A stretch of DNA of 64,000 nt from Burkholderiales bacterium (GCA_023701005.1 JAMPXW010000001.1:143843-207842), one strand, 5' to 3'. Shown: positions 7,187-43,685, counted from the stretch's first letter. A program made the numbers and translations. Notes: generated by a model not told the origin, from the letters alone.

Positions 7187-10100
7187 TTAATGATGTTCTT
7201 TTTTTGAATTATCAGCGACAAATACTACTTCGCGATTATAGTTAGAATATGCTTTTCTTGCTGCGAGTACAAGCAATACTACAAGAAGTATTAATAAGAG
7301 CCATCCTATTAGGTTGTTAGGCAAGAAGCCATTTCCAAATAAGAATGCAAGTGCTCCTAATTGTATCGGCTCAGTTGTGTTTATCGGTTGTTCTACGACT
7401 ACTGGCTGACTCCAAACTTGTGCAGATACATTTGCACTTACTGACTGGGTGTAGCCTGAAGGATCAGTATAAGACAAAATAGCAGGGAAGTTTAGATTTG
7501 TTCCTGCAGGAATGTTTTCTCTTACACGTACTCGTACTGTCACTGTGCCTTCTTTGTTTGCACCAAGTGTTCCCAGGTTGAAGATTAGAGTACTCCCAGA
7601 CCTAGTTGGATTGTTTGGATTTGAGAATATATAATCTACTTCATAAGGAAGATCCATTCGTAGGTTTAATTTTGTGATTGAACCTGTTCCAATGTTTTGG
7701 TAATTTACAGTATAGTTTATTTCGTCTCCTGGTTTTGGTCTTGTGTTGTCTATAGTAGGCACTATTGGTTGATTGCGATCGACAGAAGAAGTGATAAGGA
7801 CAAGGGAAGTAGGTGCTGGTTTTGGATTATTTATTGTTTGTCCACGAACTCCTATAGTGACTGTATCGCTTGCATAACCATAACTATTACTACAAGTTAT
7901 TTTATATGTTTTCCCTGATGTTAATGAACCAGTATAGAAACTAGCTGGTCCAATACTTTTTGTTCCTGACCAACCCGTTGATCCGCCACTAGCTACACAA
8001 GATGTGGCATTTTGAGATGTCCAACGTAGATAAGTAGCACCATTATAAGAGAGACTTTCTTCGTCAGCATTAAGACTAACGTAAGGATCATTTCCACTTG
8101 GTTGATTCTGATTTCCTACATAAACTGTAACTGATTTTGTGTCAGCATTACCGTTGTTATTTGAACAAGTAATATTGTATGTAGTTGTATTTGTGAGAGC
8201 CCCGGTATGAAAACTATTTGAATAAGTACTTTTTGTTCCTGCCCAACCATTAGAGCCAGAATTTGCATAACAAGATGTGGCATTTGTTGGATACCAACGG
8301 ATGTTTGTACTTCCGCCGTATGCGACACTGGTAGAATCAGCAGTTAATGTGACATTTGGTTGATAGATATTGTTATAGTTTTGATTGTTTATATTTATCA
8401 CCACGGATTCAGTTGTAGAACCAGCACTATTACCACAAGTCATCGTGTATACAGTAGTGTAATAGAGTGCTCCAGTAGAGAAGCTACCATTGTATGTGCT
8501 TCTTGACCCTGCCCAATTATTTCCACCATTGCTTGCTGTACAATATGTAGGATTGTTTGTTGGATTCCATGTTAAGTAAGCTCCACTTCCTGAAGTAATG
8601 TAAGTAGAATTAGCGGAAAGATTTATTATAGGAGCTTGTGTGTAATTATTACAATTATTGTAATAAGAACAATCATGATTATTGTTGGTTACATAAACTG
8701 TTACCGAGCTCACAGCTGGGGAAGTATTGTTTGCACCAGAACAGGTGATCGTGTAAGTTGTCGGAGTAGTTAACATCCCAGTATTCCAAGTTCCTGAAAG
8801 ATTTACACTTCCATACCAATAGTTAGAATTATTACTTGTTGCTACACAAGATGTCGCGTTGTTTGAGTTCCAACGTAAGGTTGTGCTGTTTCCATAATTT
8901 ACATTCGTATTATCAGCAGAGATACTAACGGTAGGATTTTGGCTATAACATTGTGGATTTGTATATGTTTGAGTTGAAGGCCCAGAACAATATGCGCCAC
9001 CGTTTGCAGGTGTAGGGTTTGTACAAGTTCTTGTTTGTGTTCCAGATGTACCACAAGCATAATCTCTAGTACTCCAATCACTCCATCCACCATTTATAGG
9101 TTGATTTATTACAGTGTTCGCACATTTTGTCCCGTCCCATTGAGTGTTTGATGCACAACTAGAAGTTATTATTTTTGTATCTAGCAATTCACCATTATTA
9201 TAAAGATAAAAATTTCTTGAACTAAAAGGTATAAATACAGACTGACTTCCGTAATTTCTATTTGCAATAGTTGAACCGTCGTACGGATAAGAAGAAGTTA
9301 CAGAAGAGATACCTTTTGGATTTGTTGTGTTCCAAGTTATTGTTGTATTACAGCCATTTCCATTTAAGGGGATTGTACAGTAAGAAGAACCAGTCAAAGT
9401 TCCTGACATTTGAGAAGGGATGGCTGTCACATAGACTATTGCAGAAGCTGAAGTTGATTTTCCTCCACCATAACAAGTTATATTGTAAGTTGTATTAGAA
9501 GTTGGATTTACTGTTTGATTTCCATTTGTTGTTCCTCCGCCATACATCCAACTTGCTGAACATGAATCAGCGTTTGAGCTATTCCAAGCAAGATTTACAG
9601 ATTGCCCAGCAGTAATCGTTGTGTTGCTTTTTCCGTCTACTGTTAGAGATACGGTAGGATTATTTACGACACAAGCAGGGTTTGTGTATGATTGTGTAGA
9701 AGGTCCAGAACAATATGCGCCACCGTTTGCAGGTGTAGGGTTTGTACAAGTTCTTGTTTGTGTTCCAGATGTACCACAAGCATAATCTCTAGTACTCCAA
9801 TCACTCCATCCACCATTTACGGGAACTAAACAAGCACTATTTGTGTATGTTTGAGTTTCTGTACTTGGCCCAGAACAATATGCACCACCATATGCAGGCG
9901 TAGGATTATTACAAGAACGAGTTCTTGTTTGAACACCAGAGTATCCACATTGAGTACTTTTTGGGCTCCAGTCGCTCCAAGCACTCCAACCGCCGTTTAC
10001 TGGTTGATTTACTACAGTACATGTGGAAGTTGTGAAATTAAGAATATTTAAATATGCTGTTCCGTAATTATTGGTAACTTCGAGTCTAAAATAATAAGTA

Positions 10101-10381
10101 GTATTTTCAGAAAGACCTGAAATGTATTGTTGAATAGGAAATGTACCTTCAGTATTAAAATACTGTACTGGGGTTATTGTCCCGGCACCATTTGCTACTG
10201 TACTATAGCTAGTACTATAAGTAAAACGTGCATGAGTTGGAGGGGTTCCTGTGGTTACTGTCCCTGTCAAAGTAGCACTATTACAACTTGTTACAGTTTG
10301 AGCAGAAACGACATTTCCATTAGCAAAAATCCCTAAAAGGGTTACTGTTCCGACTATTAATAATTTTATTTTTGTACTCAT
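7187..10381 (-). CDS. Large cell-surface protein: signal peptide, FN3-like domain, three thrombospondin type-1 repeats, ~6 Ig/PKD-like ~90-aa repeats, DUF11-like domain, C-terminal TM anchor
   Basis: 1064 aa. Signal peptide MSTKIKLLIVGTVTLLGIFANGNVVSA. TSP1 units GGWSAWSDWS..CG.SG.QTRTR.C.NPTPA.GGAYCSGPST. Repeated T.SC.A...W.G....G.L...T.Y.ITC modules. C-terminal GWLLLILLVVLLVLAARKA. A perfect ~120-bp intragenic DNA repeat (about 8988-9105 and 9705-9825) encodes two identical TSP1 units. Confidence 0.75.
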   Translation of the reverse strand: MSTKIKLLIVGTVTLLGIFANGNVVSAQTVTSCNSATLTGTVTTGTPPTHARFTYSTSYSTVANGAGTITPVQYFNTEGTFPIQQYISGLSENTTYYFRLEVTNNYGTAYLNILNFTTSTCTVVNQPVNGGWSAWSDWSPKSTQCGYSGVQTRTRSCNNPTPAYGGAYCSGPSTETQTYTNSACLVPVNGGWSDWSTRDYACGTSGTQTRTCTNPTPANGGAYCSGPSTQSYTNPACVVNNPTVSLTVDGKSNTTITAGQSVNLAWNSSNADSCSASWMYGGGTTNGNQTVNPTSNTTYNITCYGGGKSTSASAIVYVTAIPSQMSGTLTGSSYCTIPLNGNGCNTTITWNTTNPKGISSVTSSYPYDGSTIANRNYGSQSVFIPFSSRNFYLYNNGELLDTKIITSSCASNTQWDGTKCANTVINQPINGGWSDWSTRDYACGTSGTQTRTCTNPTPANGGAYCSGPSTQTYTNPQCYSQNPTVSISADNTNVNYGNSTTLRWNSNNATSCVATSNNSNYWYGSVNLSGTWNTGMLTTPTTYTITCSGANNTSPAVSSVTVYVTNNNHDCSYYNNCNNYTQAPIINLSANSTYITSGSGAYLTWNPTNNPTYCTASNGGNNWAGSRSTYNGSFSTGALYYTTVYTMTCGNSAGSTTESVVININNQNYNNIYQPNVTLTADSTSVAYGGSTNIRWYPTNATSCYANSGSNGWAGTKSTYSNSFHTGALTNTTTYNITCSNNNGNADTKSVTVYVGNQNQPSGNDPYVSLNADEESLSYNGATYLRWTSQNATSCVASGGSTGWSGTKSIGPASFYTGSLTSGKTYKITCSNSYGYASDTVTIGVRGQTINNPKPAPTSLVLITSSVDRNQPIVPTIDNTRPKPGDEINYTVNYQNIGTGSITKLNLRMDLPYEVDYIFSNPNNPTRSGSTLIFNLGTLGANKEGTVTVRVRVRENIPAGTNLNFPAILSYTDPSGYTQSVSANVSAQVWSQPVVVEQPINTTEPIQLGALAFLFGNGFLPNNLIGWLLLILLVVLLVLAARKAYSNYNREVVFVADNSKKEHH

Positions 10382-29455: not shown

Positions 29456-30133
29456 ATGGGGAACAGGGGTCCACAACCAAAAAAAATTATAGATGAAACA
29501 TGGAATGCTAATTTAGCATATGCAATTGGCTTAATTGCTACAGATGGATGTTTGTCAAAAGATGGACTGCTTGTTGACTTAACTTCGAAAGACAGAGAGC
29601 AATTATTAAATTTTTCTAAATGTGTGGGGGTGAATTTCAAAATAGGAAATAAATGGAATATAAGAGGGGATGAATGTTTAAGAATCCAGTTTAAGAATAG
29701 AATATTTTATGATTTTCTTTTATCTATTGGATTAACTCCAAAAAAGTCATTAACTATGGGAAAGTTAAAAATACCAGACAAATATTTTTTTGATTTTTTA
29801 CGAGGATGTTTTGATGGGGATGGGTGTTTCTACTCCTATTGGGATTCAAGATGGCGTTCAAGTCATATGTTTTATTTAACCTTTAATTCAGCAAGCTATA
29901 TTCATGTTCTGTGGCTTCAAGAAAGAATATTTAAATTTTTGTTAATTAAGGGGCATATTTCTAAATCACAACGAAAGGGTTCAATCTATAGTTTAAGATA
30001 TGCGAAGAGGGAAGCGATGGAAATAATTAATAAAATGTATTACAATCCTAATGTTGTTTGTTTATCTCGAAAAAAAGAGAAAATAGACAAGGCTCTTTTA
30101 GTAGAGAAAAAACAACAAAAAACTTATATTTAA
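29456..30133 (+). CDS. Free-standing double-motif LAGLIDADG homing endonuclease
   Basis: Motif 1 LAYAIGLIATDGCL and motif 2 FLRGCFDGDGCF ~100 aa apart. 225 aa. The stop lies 2 nt before tRNA-Leu. Confidence 0.75.
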   Translation: MGNRGPQPKKIIDETWNANLAYAIGLIATDGCLSKDGLLVDLTSKDREQLLNFSKCVGVNFKIGNKWNIRGDECLRIQFKNRIFYDFLLSIGLTPKKSLTMGKLKIPDKYFFDFLRGCFDGDGCFYSYWDSRWRSSHMFYLTFNSASYIHVLWLQERIFKFLLIKGHISKSQRKGSIYSLRYAKREAMEIINKMYYNPNVVCLSRKKEKIDKALLVEKKQQKTYI

Positions 30134-30135
30134 AT

Positions 30136-30219
30136 GCTCGGGTGATGTAATTGGTAACCATGTACGATTGAGGTTCGTATGGCGCAAGCCGTGGGAGTTC
30201 AAGTCTCCCCCCGAGCACC
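30136..30219 (+). tRNA. tRNA-Leu (anticodon GAG), long variable arm
   Basis: Acceptor GCTCGGG/CCCGAGC; anticodon loop TTGAGGT; extra arm TGGCGCAAGCCGTG; T-arm GGGAGTTCAAGTCTCCC; discriminator A. Confidence 0.8.
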
Positions 30220-37257: not shown

Positions 37258-37283
37258 AGAGCCCTTGAAAGGGGGCTTTTTTA
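37258..37283 (+). terminator. Rho-independent terminator (gcccttgaaagggggc + tttttt) upstream of secE
   Basis: GC hairpin plus T-run. Confidence 0.6.
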
Positions 37284-37306
37284 AAAGATTTAAGCGAAAA
37301 TACAAA

Positions 37307-37492
37307 ATGTCAAAAATAACTGAGTATTTTAAAGAAACAAAAATAGAGCTAAAACACGTTATTTGGCCTACTAAATATCAGACTATTTTATATACGATTA
37401 TTGTCATAGTCTTGTCTGTGTTGATAGCTTATATCTTGGGAGTGTTTGATTATGCTTTCTTACAAGGTTTGCAAAAAATAATTTCTTTTTAA
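37307..37492 (+). CDS. secE: Preprotein translocase subunit SecE (single TM)
   Basis: ..ETK.ELKHVIWPTK.Q.......VIV.....A..LG..D; immediately upstream of nusG. Confidence 0.75.
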   Translation: MSKITEYFKETKIELKHVIWPTKYQTILYTIIVIVLSVLIAYILGVFDYAFLQGLQKIISF

Positions 37493-37496
37493 TAAT

Positions 37497-38042
37497 ATGT
37501 CAAAACAAGAAACACAAGGCGCTAGAAATTGGTATGCTATACATACCTATGCTGGATACGAAAATGTTGTTTTACGTAATTTAAAGCAACGTATCGATTC
37601 ACTAGGAATGAATGATAAGATTTTTAATGTCATAGTACCAATTGAAAAAAAGATAAAGATAAAGGCTGGTAAACGTGTAGAAGTCGAAGAAAAGATTTAT
37701 CCAGGATATGTGTTGGTAGATATGATAGTTACAGATGATTCTTGGTATGTTGTTCGAAATACTCCACGTGTCACAGGTTTCGTTGGTGCTGGAGTAAACC
37801 CTGTACCATTAAGAAGTGACGAAGTAGATTATTTGTTTAAGAAAATGGATACTGGCACTCTTAAACACAATATCGACATTGCGATAGATGAGATAGTGAG
37901 AATAGTAGATGGTCCATTTAAAGATTTAGAAGGTAAGGTAAATTCTGTAGATCAAGAAAGAGGTAAAATAAAAGTATTAGTATCAATGTTTGGTCGTGAG
38001 ACCCCCGTCGAACTTGATTTCTTGCAAGTTAAGAAAACTTAA
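37497..38042 (+). CDS. nusG: Transcription termination/antitermination factor NusG
   Basis: NGN domain NWYAIHTYAGYENVV; KOW G..V.VVDGPF....G.V..VD...GK..V.V.MFGRETPVELDF.QV. Confidence 0.85.
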   Translation: MSKQETQGARNWYAIHTYAGYENVVLRNLKQRIDSLGMNDKIFNVIVPIEKKIKIKAGKRVEVEEKIYPGYVLVDMIVTDDSWYVVRNTPRVTGFVGAGVNPVPLRSDEVDYLFKKMDTGTLKHNIDIAIDEIVRIVDGPFKDLEGKVNSVDQERGKIKVLVSMFGRETPVELDFLQVKKT

Positions 38043-38058
38043 GGTAATCTAAAAATAT

Positions 38059-38484
38059 ATGGCAAAAAAGATAACAAAAAAAATAAAATTACAAATACAA
38101 GCAGCGAAAGCAACACCAGCTCCACCTTTGGGACCAGCATTGGGTCAGGCAGGTATTAACATTGGAGACTTTGTCACCAAATTTAATGCAGCTACTCAAA
38201 AGATGGCAGGGGACAAGGTTGGGGTAGTTATCACAGTTTTTGATGATAGAAGTTATGATTTCATAATAAAGACTCCACCAGTTACCGGACTTATTTTGAA
38301 AGCAGCAGGTATAGAAAAAGGATCAGGCAAAAATGCTACGACTAAGGTTGGAAAGATAACCAAAGCTCAAGCATTAGAGATTGCTAAAAAGAAAATGGCT
38401 GATTTGAACTCAAAAGATGATGTTGGTGCCATAAACATTGTAGCCGGTTCTGCTCGCTCAATGGGTATTGAAGTTAAAGACTAA
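38059..38484 (+). CDS. rplK: 50S ribosomal protein L11
   Basis: [28 protein letters not shown]...FN..T; 141 aa. Confidence 0.9.
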
Positions 38485-38496
38485 AAATTGAATTAA

Positions 38497-38538
38497 AAAG
38501 AGCCCCGACTTACTAAAGTCGGGGCTCTTTACTTTTTG
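38497..38538 (+). terminator. Strong rho-independent terminator after rplK (agagccccgact...gtcggggctct + T-run)
   Basis: 11-bp GC-rich stem; no rplA follows. Confidence 0.75.
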
Positions 38539-38611
38539 TCTGTTGGGTGTTATTTTATCAGTAAGTAATTTGTTATTCGATAACTAATTTATTCTAAAAG
38601 CTGGAGGATTT

Positions 38612-39109
38612 ATGGGTTTACCGGATGTTTCTTACTGGACAGATGAAATCTTGGAAAAATTAAATAATTCTAAGAATTTTCAAGAGGCTTTTGATGCTTC
38701 TAAGGAGCTATTGGAATCTATGCCAAAAAACAAACGAATATGCATGGTTTGTGTATCAGTAGATCCTGGGGAAAACAGAAGCTTAAAACTTTTAAAAGAA
38801 CGGGTGCTTCTTTTGCAGAAGTATCGTAGGCATAATATTTTTGACACAGCTCCACTTCATGGAGTTTTGTTAAAATTATCTGAAAAGTGGATGAAACAAC
38901 AATTAAGATTAGTTTGCGAACCAGCATTGGATGTATACTACAGATTATTTAATTCCGGGTTAGTTCGTGTTGTATATTTTCACAAAGACGATGACCATAC
39001 TAGTATTTTTTTACTTAAAGAAAAATTAAAAACAATTTCACATTTACCTCAGGATTTTGAAAGAGAGTTAATTTTTGACGAAAATGATGCTCTTGTTTCT
39101 AATAATTAA
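38612..39109 (+). CDS. Hypothetical cytoplasmic protein (165 aa), own terminator at 39124-39156
   Basis: ORF with SD GGAGG 8 nt upstream; no motifs recognised; followed by hairpin aagcacctt..aaggtgctt + T-run. Confidence 0.45.
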   Translation: MGLPDVSYWTDEILEKLNNSKNFQEAFDASKELLESMPKNKRICMVCVSVDPGENRSLKLLKERVLLLQKYRRHNIFDTAPLHGVLLKLSEKWMKQQLRLVCEPALDVYYRLFNSGLVRVVYFHKDDDHTSIFLLKEKLKTISHLPQDFERELIFDENDALVSNN

Positions 39110-39209
39110 GAATTAAGTTATATAAGCACCTTTTAATAAAGGTGCTTTACTTTTTGTCTTATAAAGAGTATTTTGAAAGAAATAATTGTAAATTGATAAA
39201 GGAGGAGAT

Positions 39210-39779
39210 GTGAACGCTCATTCAGAAATTATAGTTGCTAGGCCTTTTTCTAGTGGATTAATAAAGGGTACAAATTTGTATCCATGGAATTGGAAAAAAG
39301 GAGAACTAGCTGTTTTAAGACAAAAAAGCTTTACTTTTTGGGATGTGAGAGAAATTAGTCTGTTCAATATAAATAGACTAAGGAATACACGTGGTAAAAT
39401 ATGTGGAATTTCCACTCCTTATACCACTGGAGGTTATGGAATAGAATTGAACACAAAAATATTTTACAAATGCATGCGGTATTTGGAATCAATAGGTTAT
39501 ACAATATTCAATTTCCCGGTTTTAGACATCGCAATTAGACCACTTAGAGAAAAATGGTGCGAAGAAAAGGGTGTGAAATATTGTGAACCAATATTTGGAG
39601 TCGTTTATAATGACGTCTTTCAATTTGGTGGCTTTGAAGAAATTTTCAGAACATCTAATTGGCCTAGTTCAGATGGATGCAATACGGAAGACGGATTATT
39701 TAAAAAATTTAATATTAATGTTTCTTCATTTCCTGAAGAAGAATTCAAAAAAATATTAAAAAGTCTGAATTTGGAATAG
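39210..39779 (+). CDS. Hypothetical protein (189 aa), GTG start after strong SD, own terminator at 39786-39816
   Basis: aaaggagg-4nt-GTG; no motifs recognised. Confidence 0.4.
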   Translation: MNAHSEIIVARPFSSGLIKGTNLYPWNWKKGELAVLRQKSFTFWDVREISLFNINRLRNTRGKICGISTPYTTGGYGIELNTKIFYKCMRYLESIGYTIFNFPVLDIAIRPLREKWCEEKGVKYCEPIFGVVYNDVFQFGGFEEIFRTSNWPSSDGCNTEDGLFKKFNINVSSFPEEEFKKILKSLNLE

Positions 39780-39848
39780 TTATAAGCGGTGTCATTATGA
39801 GCCGCTTTTTTTATTTGGCTTTTTTATTTGGTGCGGTATAATTGGTCT

Positions 39849-40379
39849 ATGAAAAAAGAAACTAAAATAAAAGATAGTCGCCCTTCTTGGGAAGAGTATT
39901 TTATGGGTATTGCTGAAAAGATTTCAGAAAGATCTAAGGATCCTTCTACTAAAACAGGTTGCATCTTTGTTGATGAAAAGAATAGACCAGTTTCTTTTGG
40001 TTACAATGGTTTTATTGGTGGATGTAATGAGAAAAAGATGACACAAGAGAGACCAATGAAATATTATCTAGTAATCCATGCAGAAATGAACGCCATTTTG
40101 TTTGCAAAGAAAGATTTATCAAATTGCACGGTGTACTCTTTATATGCTCCGTGTGAGAATTGTTTAAAACATATGATTCAAGCAGGGATAAAGAATATTA
40201 TTTATAAAAATCCTGTAGTAGAAAGTAAGGCCAATAACAATACGCAATCAATGACCACACAATTGACGAATGAAGCCATCACTCGAATGTTGCTTTCTAT
40301 GCCAGAAGTAAATTGTCGCAATATAAGTGGAAAAAGTTATTTAAAAGAAATGTGGGGCAATAATATACCTAAATTTTAA
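39849..40379 (+). CDS. dCMP/cytidine deaminase-family zinc enzyme (dCMP deaminase, ComEB-like)
   Basis: SWEEYFMGIA...RS.D..TK.GC; zinc motifs HAEMNAI and PCENC. Confidence 0.7.
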   Translation: MKKETKIKDSRPSWEEYFMGIAEKISERSKDPSTKTGCIFVDEKNRPVSFGYNGFIGGCNEKKMTQERPMKYYLVIHAEMNAILFAKKDLSNCTVYSLYAPCENCLKHMIQAGIKNIIYKNPVVESKANNNTQSMTTQLTNEAITRMLLSMPEVNCRNISGKSYLKEMWGNNIPKF

Positions 40380-40383
40380 TTTT

Positions 40384-40953
40384 ATGGATAAAAAAATAAT
40401 TATTGGAATAACTGGAACACTTGGTGCTGGGAAGGGAACGATTGTTCAACATCTTTTAAAAAATAATGAATTTATACATTTTTCTGCACGAGAAGATGTT
40501 ATTAATAAAGAGATAGAAAGAAGAGGGTTGCCAATAACAAGAGACAATATGGTTTTGGTTGCCAATGACCTTAGGAAAAATTATGGGCCTAGCCATGTTG
40601 CTGAAGAACTTTTTAAAATGGCACAAAATTCTGACAAAAATTGTGTTTTAGAAAGCTTAAGAACTGCAGGTGAAATTGAAGCACTTAGAAAAAAGGGTGA
40701 ATTTTATTTATTCGCGGTAAATGCTGAACAAGAAACAAGATACGATCGAATTCACAAGAGGGGAAATATGCAAAGTGATAATGTGAGTTTTGAAAAATTT
40801 GTTGAACAAGAAGAAATTGAAATGAAATCAGATGATCCAAATAAACAAAATTTGTCTAAATGTATTTCAATGGCAGATTATGTCTTTGATAATAATGGAA
40901 CTTTTGAAGATTTATATAAACAAGTAGATGAAGTAATTAAGAAACTTTCCTAA
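40384..40953 (+). CDS. P-loop deoxynucleoside monophosphate kinase-like protein (T4 gp1-like)
   Basis: Walker A GITGTLGAGKGT; C-terminal ..DNNGTFEDLYKQVDEVIKKL resembles the T4 dNMP kinase C-terminus. Confidence 0.5.
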   Translation: MDKKIIIGITGTLGAGKGTIVQHLLKNNEFIHFSAREDVINKEIERRGLPITRDNMVLVANDLRKNYGPSHVAEELFKMAQNSDKNCVLESLRTAGEIEALRKKGEFYLFAVNAEQETRYDRIHKRGNMQSDNVSFEKFVEQEEIEMKSDDPNKQNLSKCISMADYVFDNNGTFEDLYKQVDEVIKKLS

Positions 40954-40956
40954 TTA

Positions 40957-42312
40957 TTATTTTAAAACAATATCATGTTCTCCTCGTTTTATATCAAAGC
41001 GATCTGTTTCTTCATCTAGATGCATAACTAGACCATATTTACTAAATAATTTTACTAAGACACTCGCTAGCATTTTTGCTTTTTTTCTAAGAGTGGGATG
41101 TACAAATCTTGTCGCTCGAAGTTCTGCCAAATAGATTAAATAATTTAAACTTCCAGTTAATCTATTTGATATATTAAATCCCATAGCAATGTAGTATTGT
41201 TTTTCTTCTTTTAGAATATTTAATTTTTCTATTTTTTCTACCTGTTTCTTAATAAAAGTTTTGGCTTTTTCTTGTAGTTCTTTTGGTAATTCATCTATAT
41301 ACCAATTTTCGAAACTAATTTCAGTTGTGAGTAAAGGCATTCTTTGTGTTATTGCACGATGTCTTTGTAAATCTCTGAAAGATCCAAAGTCGAGAAGAAA
41401 TTCAAATTGCAATGTCCCCGCTTCTGCTAAATGTTTTGGCAATTCAGTTTTCATCGGTCTTTTTTCTAGGATTTCTTTCGGTAGTAATTTGATATTTATA
41501 GAATTATTAGTTAATTCAAAATTAGGACAATTTTTGTCATGATAATAATATTCATTTTTTACCCAAAATTCATTGTAACTTTCCGTATTTTTAAAAATTT
41601 CATGACTGAATGAATTAGGGAATGAGTCAAAAAGTGCAGATTGTATTGCTTCTGAGATATTTCTAACTTCTTCGAGTGGGTGGTGTCGGAGTAGCATTAG
41701 TTTATCAGCAGCCTGTCGTAAATTTGTATGCCAAGCTAGATTGGTGGTTGATCCGGCTGGTAGAAAACCTCTTAATATATCAAAAGCTCTTGCATTAATT
41801 GCTTTGTTATAAATATTTTCTACTTCACCTTTGCTTATAGGATAAATCTTTTTGAGATGTTCTTTTGTTGGTTCCATGGTTTCGATATAAAAAGTTCTCC
41901 AAGATTCTAAAATTTCTTCTCCTTCTTTTGTCCCAATTGGATTTTTAAATAGTTGAGTTTTAAAATCTACATAACGCGTAGATGATTCTTGTCCAGAATA
42001 TAAAGGCCAATCCTGAATTGCCTTTGCGGCTAACATAGAGATACCTTCGATAAATATTGAAGTGCTTCCACAATCACCGATTGATTTATGTCCATATCCA
42101 ACATAAAAATTTTTCATAAAATTATCTGGACCTTTTTCTGAAAGTATTTTTAGATGATTTTTTAGGCCTCCCGTAGATCTAGAATGGAGAGCTTGAAGCA
42201 TGGCAGCCGATTCCGGCCCTATAACCGACCCTGTATCGAGAACAATAACGATACCCCCACCTTTTATTTGAGCTTCGTGATGTTTTAAGTTTTCTAGATT
42301 TTTATTTTCCAT
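40957..42312 (-). CDS. thyX: Tandem-fused flavin-dependent thymidylate synthase (two ThyX-like domains in one 451-aa polypeptide)
   Basis: Domain 1: ALHSRS, GHKSIGDCGSTSIFIEGISMLAAKAIQDWPLYSGQESSTRY (retains S.QE.S.RY, lacks RHR) and LPAGSTTNLAWHTNLRQ. Domain 2: FEFLLDFGSFRDLQRHRAIT (retains RHR) and YLIYLAELRATRF. Confidence 0.6.
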   Translation of the reverse strand: MENKNLENLKHHEAQIKGGGIVIVLDTGSVIGPESAAMLQALHSRSTGGLKNHLKILSEKGPDNFMKNFYVGYGHKSIGDCGSTSIFIEGISMLAAKAIQDWPLYSGQESSTRYVDFKTQLFKNPIGTKEGEEILESWRTFYIETMEPTKEHLKKIYPISKGEVENIYNKAINARAFDILRGFLPAGSTTNLAWHTNLRQAADKLMLLRHHPLEEVRNISEAIQSALFDSFPNSFSHEIFKNTESYNEFWVKNEYYYHDKNCPNFELTNNSINIKLLPKEILEKRPMKTELPKHLAEAGTLQFEFLLDFGSFRDLQRHRAITQRMPLLTTEISFENWYIDELPKELQEKAKTFIKKQVEKIEKLNILKEEKQYYIAMGFNISNRLTGSLNYLIYLAELRATRFVHPTLRKKAKMLASVLVKLFSKYGLVMHLDEETDRFDIKRGEHDIVLK

Positions 42313-42434: not shown

Positions 42435-43685
42435 ATGTATAAAAATAATAACTCATCAAAACCGAAGAAATTCGGGCATTCTAAATTTGGCTCAAAACCA
42501 AAATCTGCTCATAAATTCGGAGGTAAAAATTTTAAAAGAAGTGGAGGTCGTTCTAAAAAGAGAGGTTTTTCCGAGCGGATAGATTTTTCTCGTTTTATAA
42601 AAAAAGGCCAGCATGTAGAAGAGAAGCCATATGTGTCTAAGCACACATTTATAGATTTTCCTTTTGATCCTCAAATTCATAAAAACATAGCAAGAGCTCA
42701 ATTTATAAATCCAAGACCTATCCAAGATCAAGCTATCCCTTCTGTACTGAAAGGCATGGATGTCTTTGGTATGGCAAACACGGGGACAGGTAAGACGGCA
42801 GCATTTTTGTTGCCTTTGATTGAAAAGATAGTTAAGACTAAGGGCCAAAATAAAAGAGAGACTGTTTTGATCATGGCACCTACGAGAGAGCTCGCAATGC
42901 AGATAGATTCAGATTTTAAGATGTTAGGCTTTGGCTTAGGAATTTTCTCTGTATCTTGTGTCGGAGGACTTCCGATAATGAGACAAATAAGTGAAATAAA
43001 AAGAGGGGTGTCTTTCGTTATAGGTACACCTGGAAGGATAAGAGATCTCATCGATAGAAAAGTTTTGGATTTTTCTACTTGTCATTCTGTCGTACTCGAT
43101 GAGGCAGATAGAATGCTAGACATGGGATTTCGGGATGATATGGTTTTTATCCTTGGTAAAGTTCCAAAAGAAGACAGACAGACTCTTTTCTTTTCAGCAA
43201 CATTATCACCAGAAGTAAAAAAGCTAACTACAGAATTTCTTAAAGATCCTGTCTTTATTTCTGTAATTTCTGGAGAAACTGCAAAAAATATTGACCAAGA
43301 TGTAGTTCGTACTAGGAGCAAAGAAGAAAAATTAGAAAAACTCCACGAAATCTTAAAAAAGGATGGCTCTGATAAAGTTTTGATTTTTAGAGAAATGAAA
43401 CATAGCGTAGATGATCTGACTAAAGAGTTGAAACATATGGGCTTTAAGGTGGGTTGTATACATGGAGACAAGAGAAGTCGTGAACGTATTCGCACATTAG
43501 AACAATTTAAAAAAGATCAAATAAATATTTTAATTGCGACAGATGTCGCAGCTCGTGGCCTCGATATACCAGATGTGACACATGTCATAAATTATGATAT
43601 TCCTCAAACATACGATACGTATGTGCACAGAATAGGCCGTACTGGCCGTTCAGGCAAAAAGGGAACAGCACTTACTTTCGTGTAA
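42435..43685 (+). CDS. DEAD-box ATP-dependent RNA helicase with basic N-terminal extension
   Basis: Q-motif, motif I MANTGTGKT, II VLDEADRMLDMGF, III SAT, VI HRIGRTGRSGKKG. Confidence 0.85.
   Translation: MYKNNNSSKPKKFGHSKFGSKPKSAHKFGGKNFKRSGGRSKKRGFSERIDFSRFIKKGQHVEEKPYVSKHTFIDFPFDPQIHKNIARAQFINPRPIQDQAIPSVLKGMDVFGMANTGTGKTAAFLLPLIEKIVKTKGQNKRETVLIMAPTRELAMQIDSDFKMLGFGLGIFSVSCVGGLPIMRQISEIKRGVSFVIGTPGRIRDLIDRKVLDFSTCHSVVLDEADRMLDMGFRDDMVFILGKVPKEDRQTLFFSATLSPEVKKLTTEFLKDPVFISVISGETAKNIDQDVVRTRSKEEKLEKLHEILKKDGSDKVLIFREMKHSVDDLTKELKHMGFKVGCIHGDKRSRERIRTLEQFKKDQINILIATDVAARGLDIPDVTHVINYDIPQTYDTYVHRIGRTGRSGKKGTALTFV

Follow-up and report, generated by a model that had tools for sequence, protein, structure and literature searches.

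A single-chain ThyX of two fused folds, with its active-site residues divided between the halves, in a thymidine-nucleotide gene cluster of a Paceibacteria-type bacterium

A stretch of 64,000 nucleotides deposited as GCA_023701005.1 JAMPXW010000001.1:143843-207842 (henceforth the window, meaning the whole of that stretch) carries, at positions 38,497 to 42,312, a small group of genes that includes a zinc deaminase, a P-loop kinase and, on the opposite strand, a flavin-dependent thymidylate synthase (ThyX) of 451 residues. The evidence supports the reading that this ThyX consists of two ThyX folds fused in a single chain, and comparison with its relatives shows that the active-site residues are partitioned between the N-terminal half (N half) and the C-terminal half (C half) in a complementary manner that is fixed family-wide. 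The best explanation overall, which appears quite probable, is a housekeeping gene cluster with a single-chain pseudo-heterodimeric ThyX and a kinase of the UPF0200 type.

The presence of two folds is indicated by family profiles, by a structural model, and by alignments of the halves with solved enzymes and with each other. The Pfam Thy1 family (PF02511) matches residues 49-232, that is, the N half, at 59.6 bits against a cutoff of 24.8 (4.5e-16), and the isolated C halves of relatives are matched by Thy1 in 16 of 18 cases (best 6.5e-7). In an AlphaFold2 (AF2) model made with 25 relatives (predicted local distance difference test score, pLDDT, 77; predicted template modelling score, pTM, 0.78), the order strand-helix-strand-helix-helix-strand-helix-helix is repeated in both halves, as E84-92, H93-100, E109-114, H129-156, H165-183, E188-196, H198-208, and H214-230 in the N half and as E300-308, H309-316, E321-324, H344-363, H368-374, E379-388, H389-400, and H406-425 in the C half (E, strand; H, helix). 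The top Foldseek matches in the PDB are all ThyX (1o28, 1kq4, 2cfa, and 4fzb), with a probability of 1.00 and about one half covered by each, at target-normalised TM scores of 0.55-0.63; the identity to solved ThyX is 12-17%.

Detection of the solved enzymes by sequence depended on the breadth of the profile. All PDB entries of ThyX were missed by phmmer and by profiles of close relatives, and a diverse profile was required, made from 71 relatives that are 35-51% identical to the window ThyX (alignment A4, which is also the basis of the column counts given below). In the N half, profile positions 48-217 align with residues 63-230 of Mycobacterium tuberculosis ThyX (2e-6), and in the C half, profile positions 331-411 align with residues 129-210 of PBCV-1 ThyX (7.7e-4) with the ELR motif in register. 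Similarly, when the two halves are compared by hhalign on the 71-sequence alignment (E = 0.0063), residues 181-233 pair with residues 372-425, which is the register expected from the canonical ThyX motifs; no similarity between the halves was found by BLASTP, nor by hhalign with a shallow 25-sequence alignment. The long form itself is abundant: more than 4,389 relatives were obtained in a homologue search, the best 120 of which are 70-100% identical, are almost all of about 451 residues, and come from Paceibacterota, Nomurabacteria, and other Patescibacteria. An exhaustive HMMER search returned 2,446 clusters (50% identity, E <= 1e-3), the best 150 of which are nearly all 430-500 residues long with full-length matches, and across Paceibacteria the identity of the ThyX is 70-82%.

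The partition of the catalytic residues is described here in Thermotoga maritima numbering, in which H53, R78-H79-R80, S88, R90, Y91, R147, and R174 equal H69, R95-H96-R97, S105, R107, Y108, R172, and R199 of the M. tuberculosis enzyme; the numbering was checked on the M. tuberculosis alignment for the N half and on the PBCV-1 alignment for the C half. The N half carries QDWPLYSGQESSTRY and is devoid of RHR, and the C half carries RDLQRHRAITQRMPLLTT and is devoid of the Ser/Arg/Tyr block. Residue by residue, the N half keeps the equivalents of H53 (H75), S88 (S111), R90 (R113), Y91 (Y114), and R147 (R181), has lost R78-H79-R80 (D101-W102-P103), and has no conserved Arg for R174; the C half keeps R78-H79-R80 (R317-H318-R319) and R174 (R399, with E397-L398-R399 aligned with ELR182 of PBCV-1), has lost S88 (L327), R90 (T329), Y91 (T330), and R147 (Q372), and has no conserved His for H53.

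The 71 relatives retain these residues almost without exception, both in the N half (S111, R113, and R181 in 71/71, H75 in 70/71, Y114 and E109 in 69/71, Q108 in 68/71) and in the C half (R317, R319, R399, and H405 in 71/71, H318 in 65/71). None of them reverts at the lost positions, the RHR equivalents of the N half being D/x/P and the R147 equivalent of the C half being Q in 70/71. The contiguous motif RHRxxSxxxxSxRY is thus present in neither half and becomes complete only by combining N and C, and the equivalents of R78, R80, S88, R90, Y91, R147, and R174 occur as exactly one set per chain, invariant or nearly so. A simple duplication in which both halves are complete is ruled out by these counts. 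An earlier note, made by a model from the sequence of the window, had proposed two fused ThyX folds with RHR missing from one copy and the Ser/Tyr block missing from the other; both proposals hold, since each half matches ThyX independently and the losses are fixed in diverse relatives, and the mapping of residues onto each half yields complementary sets, neither a simple duplication nor a spurious likeness to ThyX.

In solved ThyX, the active site lies between subunits (PMC5954106; PMC3498832). In the inhibitor complex of the PBCV-1 enzyme, Q75 and R182 come from monomer A, and S88 and Q89 come from monomer B (PMC3498832), Q75 being the position just before RHR; in the T. maritima enzyme, R78, R80, S88, and R90 hydrogen-bond deoxyuridine monophosphate (dUMP) (PMC3498832), R174 activates dUMP, and S88, R90, and Y91 assist methylene transfer, with severely impaired mutants (PMC8316439). 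On the basis of these subunit roles, the C half retains precisely the contribution of monomer A and the N half precisely that of monomer B, with R147 and H53 in addition. The proposed course of events begins with an old tandem duplication of the ThyX fold, after which active-site residues were lost in a complementary manner, so that the N half would provide the substrate loop (the S88, R90, and Y91 equivalents) together with the R147 and H53 equivalents, and the C half would provide RHR and the dUMP-activating arginine equivalent to R174. With one complete residue set per chain, each fused chain would be able to build one complete site where an N half meets a C half. A pair of chains would then assemble into a pseudo-tetramer in which two sites are active and two are dead, as opposed to four active sites in the canonical enzyme. 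Such a dimer of fusions with two sites, not four, is probable, and a pseudo-enzyme is strongly argued against because close relatives are 70-82% identical and keep the catalytic set invariant.

A separate feature of the chain is its C-terminal tail (residues 439-451; 40957-40995), in which R443-G444-x-Q/H446 is invariant in the 71 relatives and the pLDDT of the model is below 50. This tail may reach the active site.

Canonical homotetrameric ThyX (T. maritima TM0449, M. tuberculosis Rv2754c, and PBCV-1 A674R) has its fold in common with the window ThyX, shares with it the catalytic and substrate-binding set (the H53, RHR78-80, S88, R90, Y91, R147, and R174 equivalents), and builds its site across subunit interfaces (PMC3498832; PMC5954106). 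The window ThyX differs in having two folds fused in 451 residues with the residues divided between the halves, in presumably offering two sites per four-domain assembly rather than four, and in falling below the TIGR02170 cutoff, with a single domain marked by Pfam; in the databases, it is named 'FAD-dependent thymidylate synthase' (FAD, flavin adenine dinucleotide) and a single Thy1 domain is recorded. A published remark concerns Chloroflexi, whose ThyX 'contains a domain duplication' in a form that 'has not been characterized' (Biol Direct 2009, PMC3224940); that paper is without residue analysis, and its likeness to the window ThyX lies in the described duplication. It is also the only remark found in the literature on tandem, fused, duplicated, or two-domain ThyX, with many subscription papers outside the coverage and an earlier description therefore possible.

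Two-domain ThyX also occurs in phages, namely Vibrio phages vB_VmeM-Yong and BONAISHI and Microcystis phage Ma-LMM01 (phrog_36506), as full-length relatives that are 30-35% identical to the window ThyX, stand in a viral context, and are annotated mostly as hypothetical. In BFVD, full-length alignments of the AF2 model are obtained with a 461-residue viral protein (TMq 0.67) and, at TMq 0.59, with the 491-residue thymidylate synthase that Microcystis phage LMM01 encodes. The ThyX of Vibrio phage vB_VmeM-Yong MS32 (L086:4968-6353) is split in the same way: its N half carries STRY, and RHR plus ELR..HPT lie in its C half. A canonical thymidylate kinase is located about 5 kb from it, instead of the UPF0200 kinase seen in bacteria of the Candidate Phyla Radiation (CPR). 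The ThyX of Chlamydia, reportedly of about 530 residues and the subject of biochemistry in 2005, may be another long form. The fused ThyX with a family-wide complementary partition is real, widespread, and apparently undescribed.

The two enzymes encoded next to ThyX bear on its substrate and product. The deaminase, as the earlier note had read from its HAE...PCxxC signature, is by its family matches a standard zinc deaminase of deoxycytidine monophosphate (dCMP): PF00383 scores 72.5 bits against a cutoff of 25 (2.9e-20), phrog_174 'dCMP deaminase' matches at 8e-42, human dCMP deaminase (2w4l, 8.5e-23) is the nearest protein of solved structure, and both zinc motifs, VIHAEMNA (HAE) and APCENC (PCENC), are present in the translation. 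The kinase on its own matches AAA_18, PRK08356 (7e-19; 68 bits against an equivalog cutoff of 189), the kinase part of the PADLOC dCTPase (6.5e-22), and phrog_139 (8e-13), a deoxynucleoside monophosphate (dNMP) kinase, and from its single sequence it reaches SSO1041 (3h0k) at 1e-8. When 27 CPR orthologues are combined into a profile, 3h0k/3lw7 are matched along the entire length at 6e-29 (profile positions 3-177, target residues 2-173), ahead of dephospho-CoA, adenylate, and UMP-CMP kinases, none of which does better than 1e-8. The name 'gp1-like', which the earlier note had derived from phage T4, is superseded by this full-length match: the Pfam DNMK family (PF21448, T4 gp1) gives 18.6 bits against a cutoff of 27.1 and is touched weakly by 21 of the 27 orthologues, and the T4 gp1 structure 1dek is met by the orthologue profile in the P-loop only (residues 4-40, 6.7e-4). 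By these matches, the kinase is a member of the UPF0200/SSO1041 family, distantly gp1-like.

The archaeal UPF0200/SSO1041 'AdkA-like' kinases (3h0k, 3lw7; PRK08356) have the P-loop and conserved arginines in common with the CPR kinase; their names give no substrate, whereas the CPR members are fixed in a deaminase-kinase-thyX cluster, a context that suggests a pyrimidine dNMP kinase or a kinase of deoxythymidine monophosphate (dTMP). The kinase gene is found near thyX with either type of deaminase and often directly upstream of thyX (loci L006-L074). Because it accompanies thyX regardless of the deaminase type, a kinase step tied to ThyX (dTMP to dTDP) is favoured, from context, over a partnership with the deaminase. 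In the proposed pathway, the zinc deaminase would convert dCMP to dUMP, the long ThyX would methylate dUMP to dTMP using FAD, NADPH, and methylene-folate, and the UPF0200-type kinase would phosphorylate a pyrimidine dNMP, most likely dTMP as judged from gene context alone. The T4 cd/gp1/td set likewise joins a deaminase, a dNMP kinase, and a thymidylate synthase, its td being a ThyA-type enzyme; the CPR cluster is set apart from it by its chromosomal location and vertical conservation and by a kinase that lies below the gp1 family cutoff, with similarity to 1dek confined to the P-loop.

The genomic context was sampled from the 568 species-representative genomes that encode a relative of the long ThyX, the best 80 of which were fetched; in all, 83 CPR loci were scanned by tblastn with the window proteins for neighbours within 6.5 kb of the long thyX. 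Found nearby were rplK, which served as the synteny anchor, in 40/83 loci, nusG in 37/83, the same kinase in 32/83, a DCD-type dCTP deaminase in 27/83, the dCMP deaminase in 26/83, rplA in 9/83, and a MazG-like gene in 6/83. The backbone conserved among relatives is nusG-rplK-[variable slot]-thyX (opposite strand)-DEAD-rpmB (L28)-M50-rpsL-rpsG-fusA, with thyX-DEAD-rpmB-M50-rpsL synteny in loci L001, L002, and L006-L014. The slot contains DCD alone in L002; Vut_1, an F420-ligase-like gene, an ATP-grasp gene, the dCMP deaminase, and a MazG-like gene in L001; and an unk2 homologue, the dCMP deaminase, and a MazG-like gene in L004 (unk2 is a gene of the window described below). The interchange of two unrelated dUMP-supplying enzymes beside thyX points to dUMP as the common metabolite, for which it is the strongest contextual argument. 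Furthermore, a small MazG-like pyrophosphohydrolase occupies the position of the kinase, in the gap between the dCMP deaminase and thyX, in L001 (11352-11684), L004 (9106-9435), L008, L012, L014, and L040; it and the kinase appear to be alternative partners in some Paceibacteria.

The earlier note had taken these genes for a 'phage-like module' standing 'where rplA is expected'. No rplA is found in the 64-kb window, including the region after rplK, by tblastn with Escherichia coli and CPR RplA queries, as the note had said of the latter region; likewise, tblastn found no rplJ, rplL, tmk, or thyA in the window (the CPR RplA queries came from related loci). Absence of L1 is a published clade trait of 'OD1-L1', a large group of Parcubacteria (PMC5220378; see also bioRxiv 10.1101/2022.01.07.475337), and the missing rplA is probably this clade trait rather than a local replacement. 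Among the 40 related loci that have rplK near thyX, rplA is present in 9, mostly Moraniibacteriota-type, and these read nusG-rplK-rplA-...-deaminase-kinase-thyX on a single strand throughout. Nine lineages thus keep rplA and then the cluster, and therefore the tie of the cluster to the ribosomal operon is old and coexists with rplA. Because the cluster is conserved beside nusG-rplK and follows an intact rplA in these nine lineages, it is a set of housekeeping thymidine-nucleotide genes that a CPR bacterium of the Paceibacteria type carries at the customary location next to secE-nusG-rplK; the 'phage-like' and 'replacement' parts of the earlier description are set aside accordingly, and the conserved neighbourhood agrees with its fallback, in which the genes simply supply a CPR cell with dTTP.

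An acquisition of the module from a phage or other mobile element, as an analogue of T4 cd/gp1/td inserted at the former rplA site, would account for the PHROG matches of the deaminase and kinase, for the presence in Vibrio jumbo phages of a full-length long ThyX, and for the two-domain form in Microcystis phage LMM01. The recurrence of the same cluster beside nusG-rplK in dozens of CPR species, including the nine lineages with intact rplA, makes such an insertion very unlikely, all the more so as the ThyX is 70-82% identical across Paceibacteria and its phage copies are only 30-35% identical to it; besides, the GC content equals that of the flanks, and the borders are free of integrase, repeats, and tRNA. 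It is scarcely credible that the deaminase and kinase are instead a split anti-phage dCTP deaminase of the AvcD/dCTPase type, depleting dCTP on infection rather than feeding ThyX. Both genes do match the two domains of that enzyme (NF041025 at 1.8e-17 and 3.3e-14; PADLOC dCTPase at 1.3e-20 and 6.5e-22), but their NF041025 scores, 63.4 and 52.6 bits, are far short of the cutoff of 400, and the genes are separate with the domain order reversed. Moreover, the kinase is just as common beside the unrelated DCD-type deaminase and goes along with thyX, the housekeeping human enzyme comes closest among solved deaminases, and the cluster holds a fixed location in the core genome.

Some observations weigh against a fused, active thymidylate synthase. 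The C half of the window protein itself reaches only 13.2 bits with Thy1 (E = 0.076), below the cutoff; it is highly divergent, and its alignment to solved ThyX is short. TIGR02170 gives 21.5 bits against a cutoff of 87.9, so that the protein falls outside the NCBI equivalog and a changed substrate is possible. The FAD-binding residues that were mapped are the RHR and H53 equivalents only, and the N/C interface and the geometric completeness of the site are deduced from residues rather than read from coordinates. A paralogue with the ThyX fold and another job, be it methylation or hydroxymethylation of nucleotides as in the UMP/dUMP methylase PolB or no catalysis at all, with true thymidylate synthesis elsewhere or absent, would agree with this TIGR02170 score far under the cutoff, with the low identity to solved ThyX, with the presence of PolB (4p5a) among the fold matches, and with the failure of single-sequence and narrow-profile searches to find ThyX in the PDB. 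This alternative is nevertheless unlikely: each chain has a single, invariant or nearly invariant set of the dUMP-binding and dUMP-activating residues, the gene almost always adjoins a dUMP-producing enzyme of one of two unrelated, interchanging deaminase types, and the window holds no thyA.

All genes named in the earlier note were recovered at their positions by the open reading frame (ORF) map and family scans. Their order is secE, nusG, rplK, unk1, unk2, dCMP deaminase, P-loop kinase, ThyX on the opposite strand, and DEAD-box helicase, beyond which follow a membrane metallophosphoesterase, rpmB, an M50 peptidase, and then rpsL-rpsG-fusA onwards (Table 1). The kinase starts 4 nt downstream of the end of the deaminase, and the kinase and thyX are convergent with stop codons 3 nt apart. 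For the deaminase, the ATG start, which directly follows the promoter-like site, is likelier than the TTG start. A terminator scan observed 8 sites against 2.7 expected, among them those after rplK and unk1; the hairpin after unk2, with its longer loop, exceeds the 8-nt loop limit of the scan and hence went unreported. The earlier claim of a strong terminator after rplK is thereby confirmed, and its claim that both unknown genes have terminators of their own stands for unk1 and, in weakened form, for unk2, after which only the weaker hairpin is seen.

Table 1. Coordinates of the genes and signals in and around the thymidine-nucleotide cluster (positions in the window).
Feature	Position	Strand	Description
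secE	37265-37492		first gene of the secE-nusG-rplK unit
nusG	37497-38042		middle gene of the secE-nusG-rplK unit
rplK (ribosomal protein L11)	38059..38484	+	TIGR01632 175 bits, 7.8e-52; both Pfam L11 domains; ends the secE-nusG-rplK unit
intrinsic terminator 3' of rplK	38497..38530	+	15-bp stem, 8 GC pairs, T-rich tail
unk1	38612..39109	+	165-aa ORF; GGAGGA ribosome-binding site; own terminator
terminator 3' of unk1	39124..39147	+	10-bp stem; tail CTTTACTTTTTGTCT, same as the rplK terminator tail
unk2	39210..39779	+	189 aa; lineage-restricted
weak terminator-like hairpin 3' of unk2	39784..39807	+	6-bp stem, 12-nt loop, T run; read by eye
promoter-like site	39815..39842	+	TTGGCT-16-TATAAT, 10/12 matches; consensus match only; ahead of the deaminase-kinase pair
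zinc dCMP deaminase	39849..40379 (ATG start, likelier; TTG-start ORF from 39828)	+	PF00383; HAE + PCENC
P-loop nucleotide kinase, UPF0200/SSO1041 family	40384..40953	+	profile match to 3h0k/3lw7
ThyX, 451 aa	40957..42312	-	Pfam Thy1; two halves
ThyX N-terminal half, residues 1-240	41593..42312	-	Pfam Thy1 on residues 49-232
ThyX C-terminal half, residues 241-451 + stop codon	40957..41592	-	isolated C halves of relatives match Thy1
DEAD-box helicase	42435..43685	+	Pfam DEAD + Helicase_C; divergent from thyX

The two unknown genes of the variable slot, unk1 and unk2, have no match in Pfam, NCBIfam, PHROG, or PADLOC, even at E = 10, and no phage match by tblastn. The only database match of unk1 is itself, and unk2 has two homologues only, 51-53% identical. 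One of these, in locus L004, lies in the same position between rplK and the dCMP deaminase, because of which unk2 is taken as a real gene of narrow, lineage-specific distribution. Its conserved blocks are GISTPYTTGGYG and W.SSDGC..EDG; its AF2 model is weak (pLDDT 55) and places the start of a predicted Rossmann-like alpha/beta core near residue 64, and Foldseek against the PDB returned generic Rossmann-like folds only (E >= 0.1). An assignment of unk2 as nucleoside 2-deoxyribosyltransferase-like or DUF4406, suggested by these conserved blocks, was dropped because no search result supports it. The two genes show a weak collinear similarity to each other (blastp 2e-4, hhalign 0.013), and the intergenic stretches 38485-38611 and 39110-39209 have an identical 15-mer, CTTTACTTTTTGTCT, at the terminator tails along with other matching stretches. 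On account of this alignment and the common upstream 15-mer, unk1 is probably a decayed copy of unk2 that arose from a tandem duplication of a terminator-plus-gene unit. The earlier suggestion that both are candidates for nucleotide handling finds no backing in homology or fold, and the genes have terminator signals of their own in a slot that is filled by unrelated genes elsewhere.

Several observations concern the contig at large. The source metagenome-assembled genome is labelled 'Burkholderiales bacterium' by NCBI (locus tags NDI62_00960 and NDI62_00965); its gene content, its GC content of about 32%, and the 70-82% identity to Paceibacterota proteins show that the contig is CPR of the Paceibacteria type, and the label appears wrong. 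At 7187-10381 (-), a 1064-residue protein combines a thrombospondin type-1 repeat (TSP_1, 3.8e-11), unusual in a bacterium, with DUF11. A free-standing 225-residue ORF at 29456-30133 (+) contains a LAGLIDADG-like domain (3.7e-6), ends 3 nt before a tRNA-Leu (30136-30219), and is possibly what remains of a homing endonuclease.

For the gene cluster, the absence of rplA, and the 'phage-like' look, ordinary or existing explanations suffice, and the interest of the locus lies in its ThyX. The family comprises thousands of sequences, spread over the 568 species genomes mentioned above, and its architecture is invisible in annotation as the databases flag the N half only and the equivalog cutoff is missed. 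In the ThyX homotetramer, where a site draws on more than one subunit, it is awkward to mutate the subunits asymmetrically; the fused enzyme would let each contribution be mutated independently, and it would test the sufficiency of two sites. Similarly, the conserved deaminase-kinase-thyX cluster defines the dTTP supply in reduced CPR genomes and offers a testable function for the UPF0200 kinases. A bolder proposal, more a possibility than an expectation, is that an obligately asymmetric single-chain ThyX, composed of a half that donates RHR and R174 and a half that donates the substrate loop, works with half of its sites across CPR and some jumbo phages, and that the UPF0200 kinase is the dTMP kinase. 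If true, this ThyX would be a natural half-of-sites flavoenzyme, so far uncharacterised, and the orphan UPF0200 family would receive its first function.

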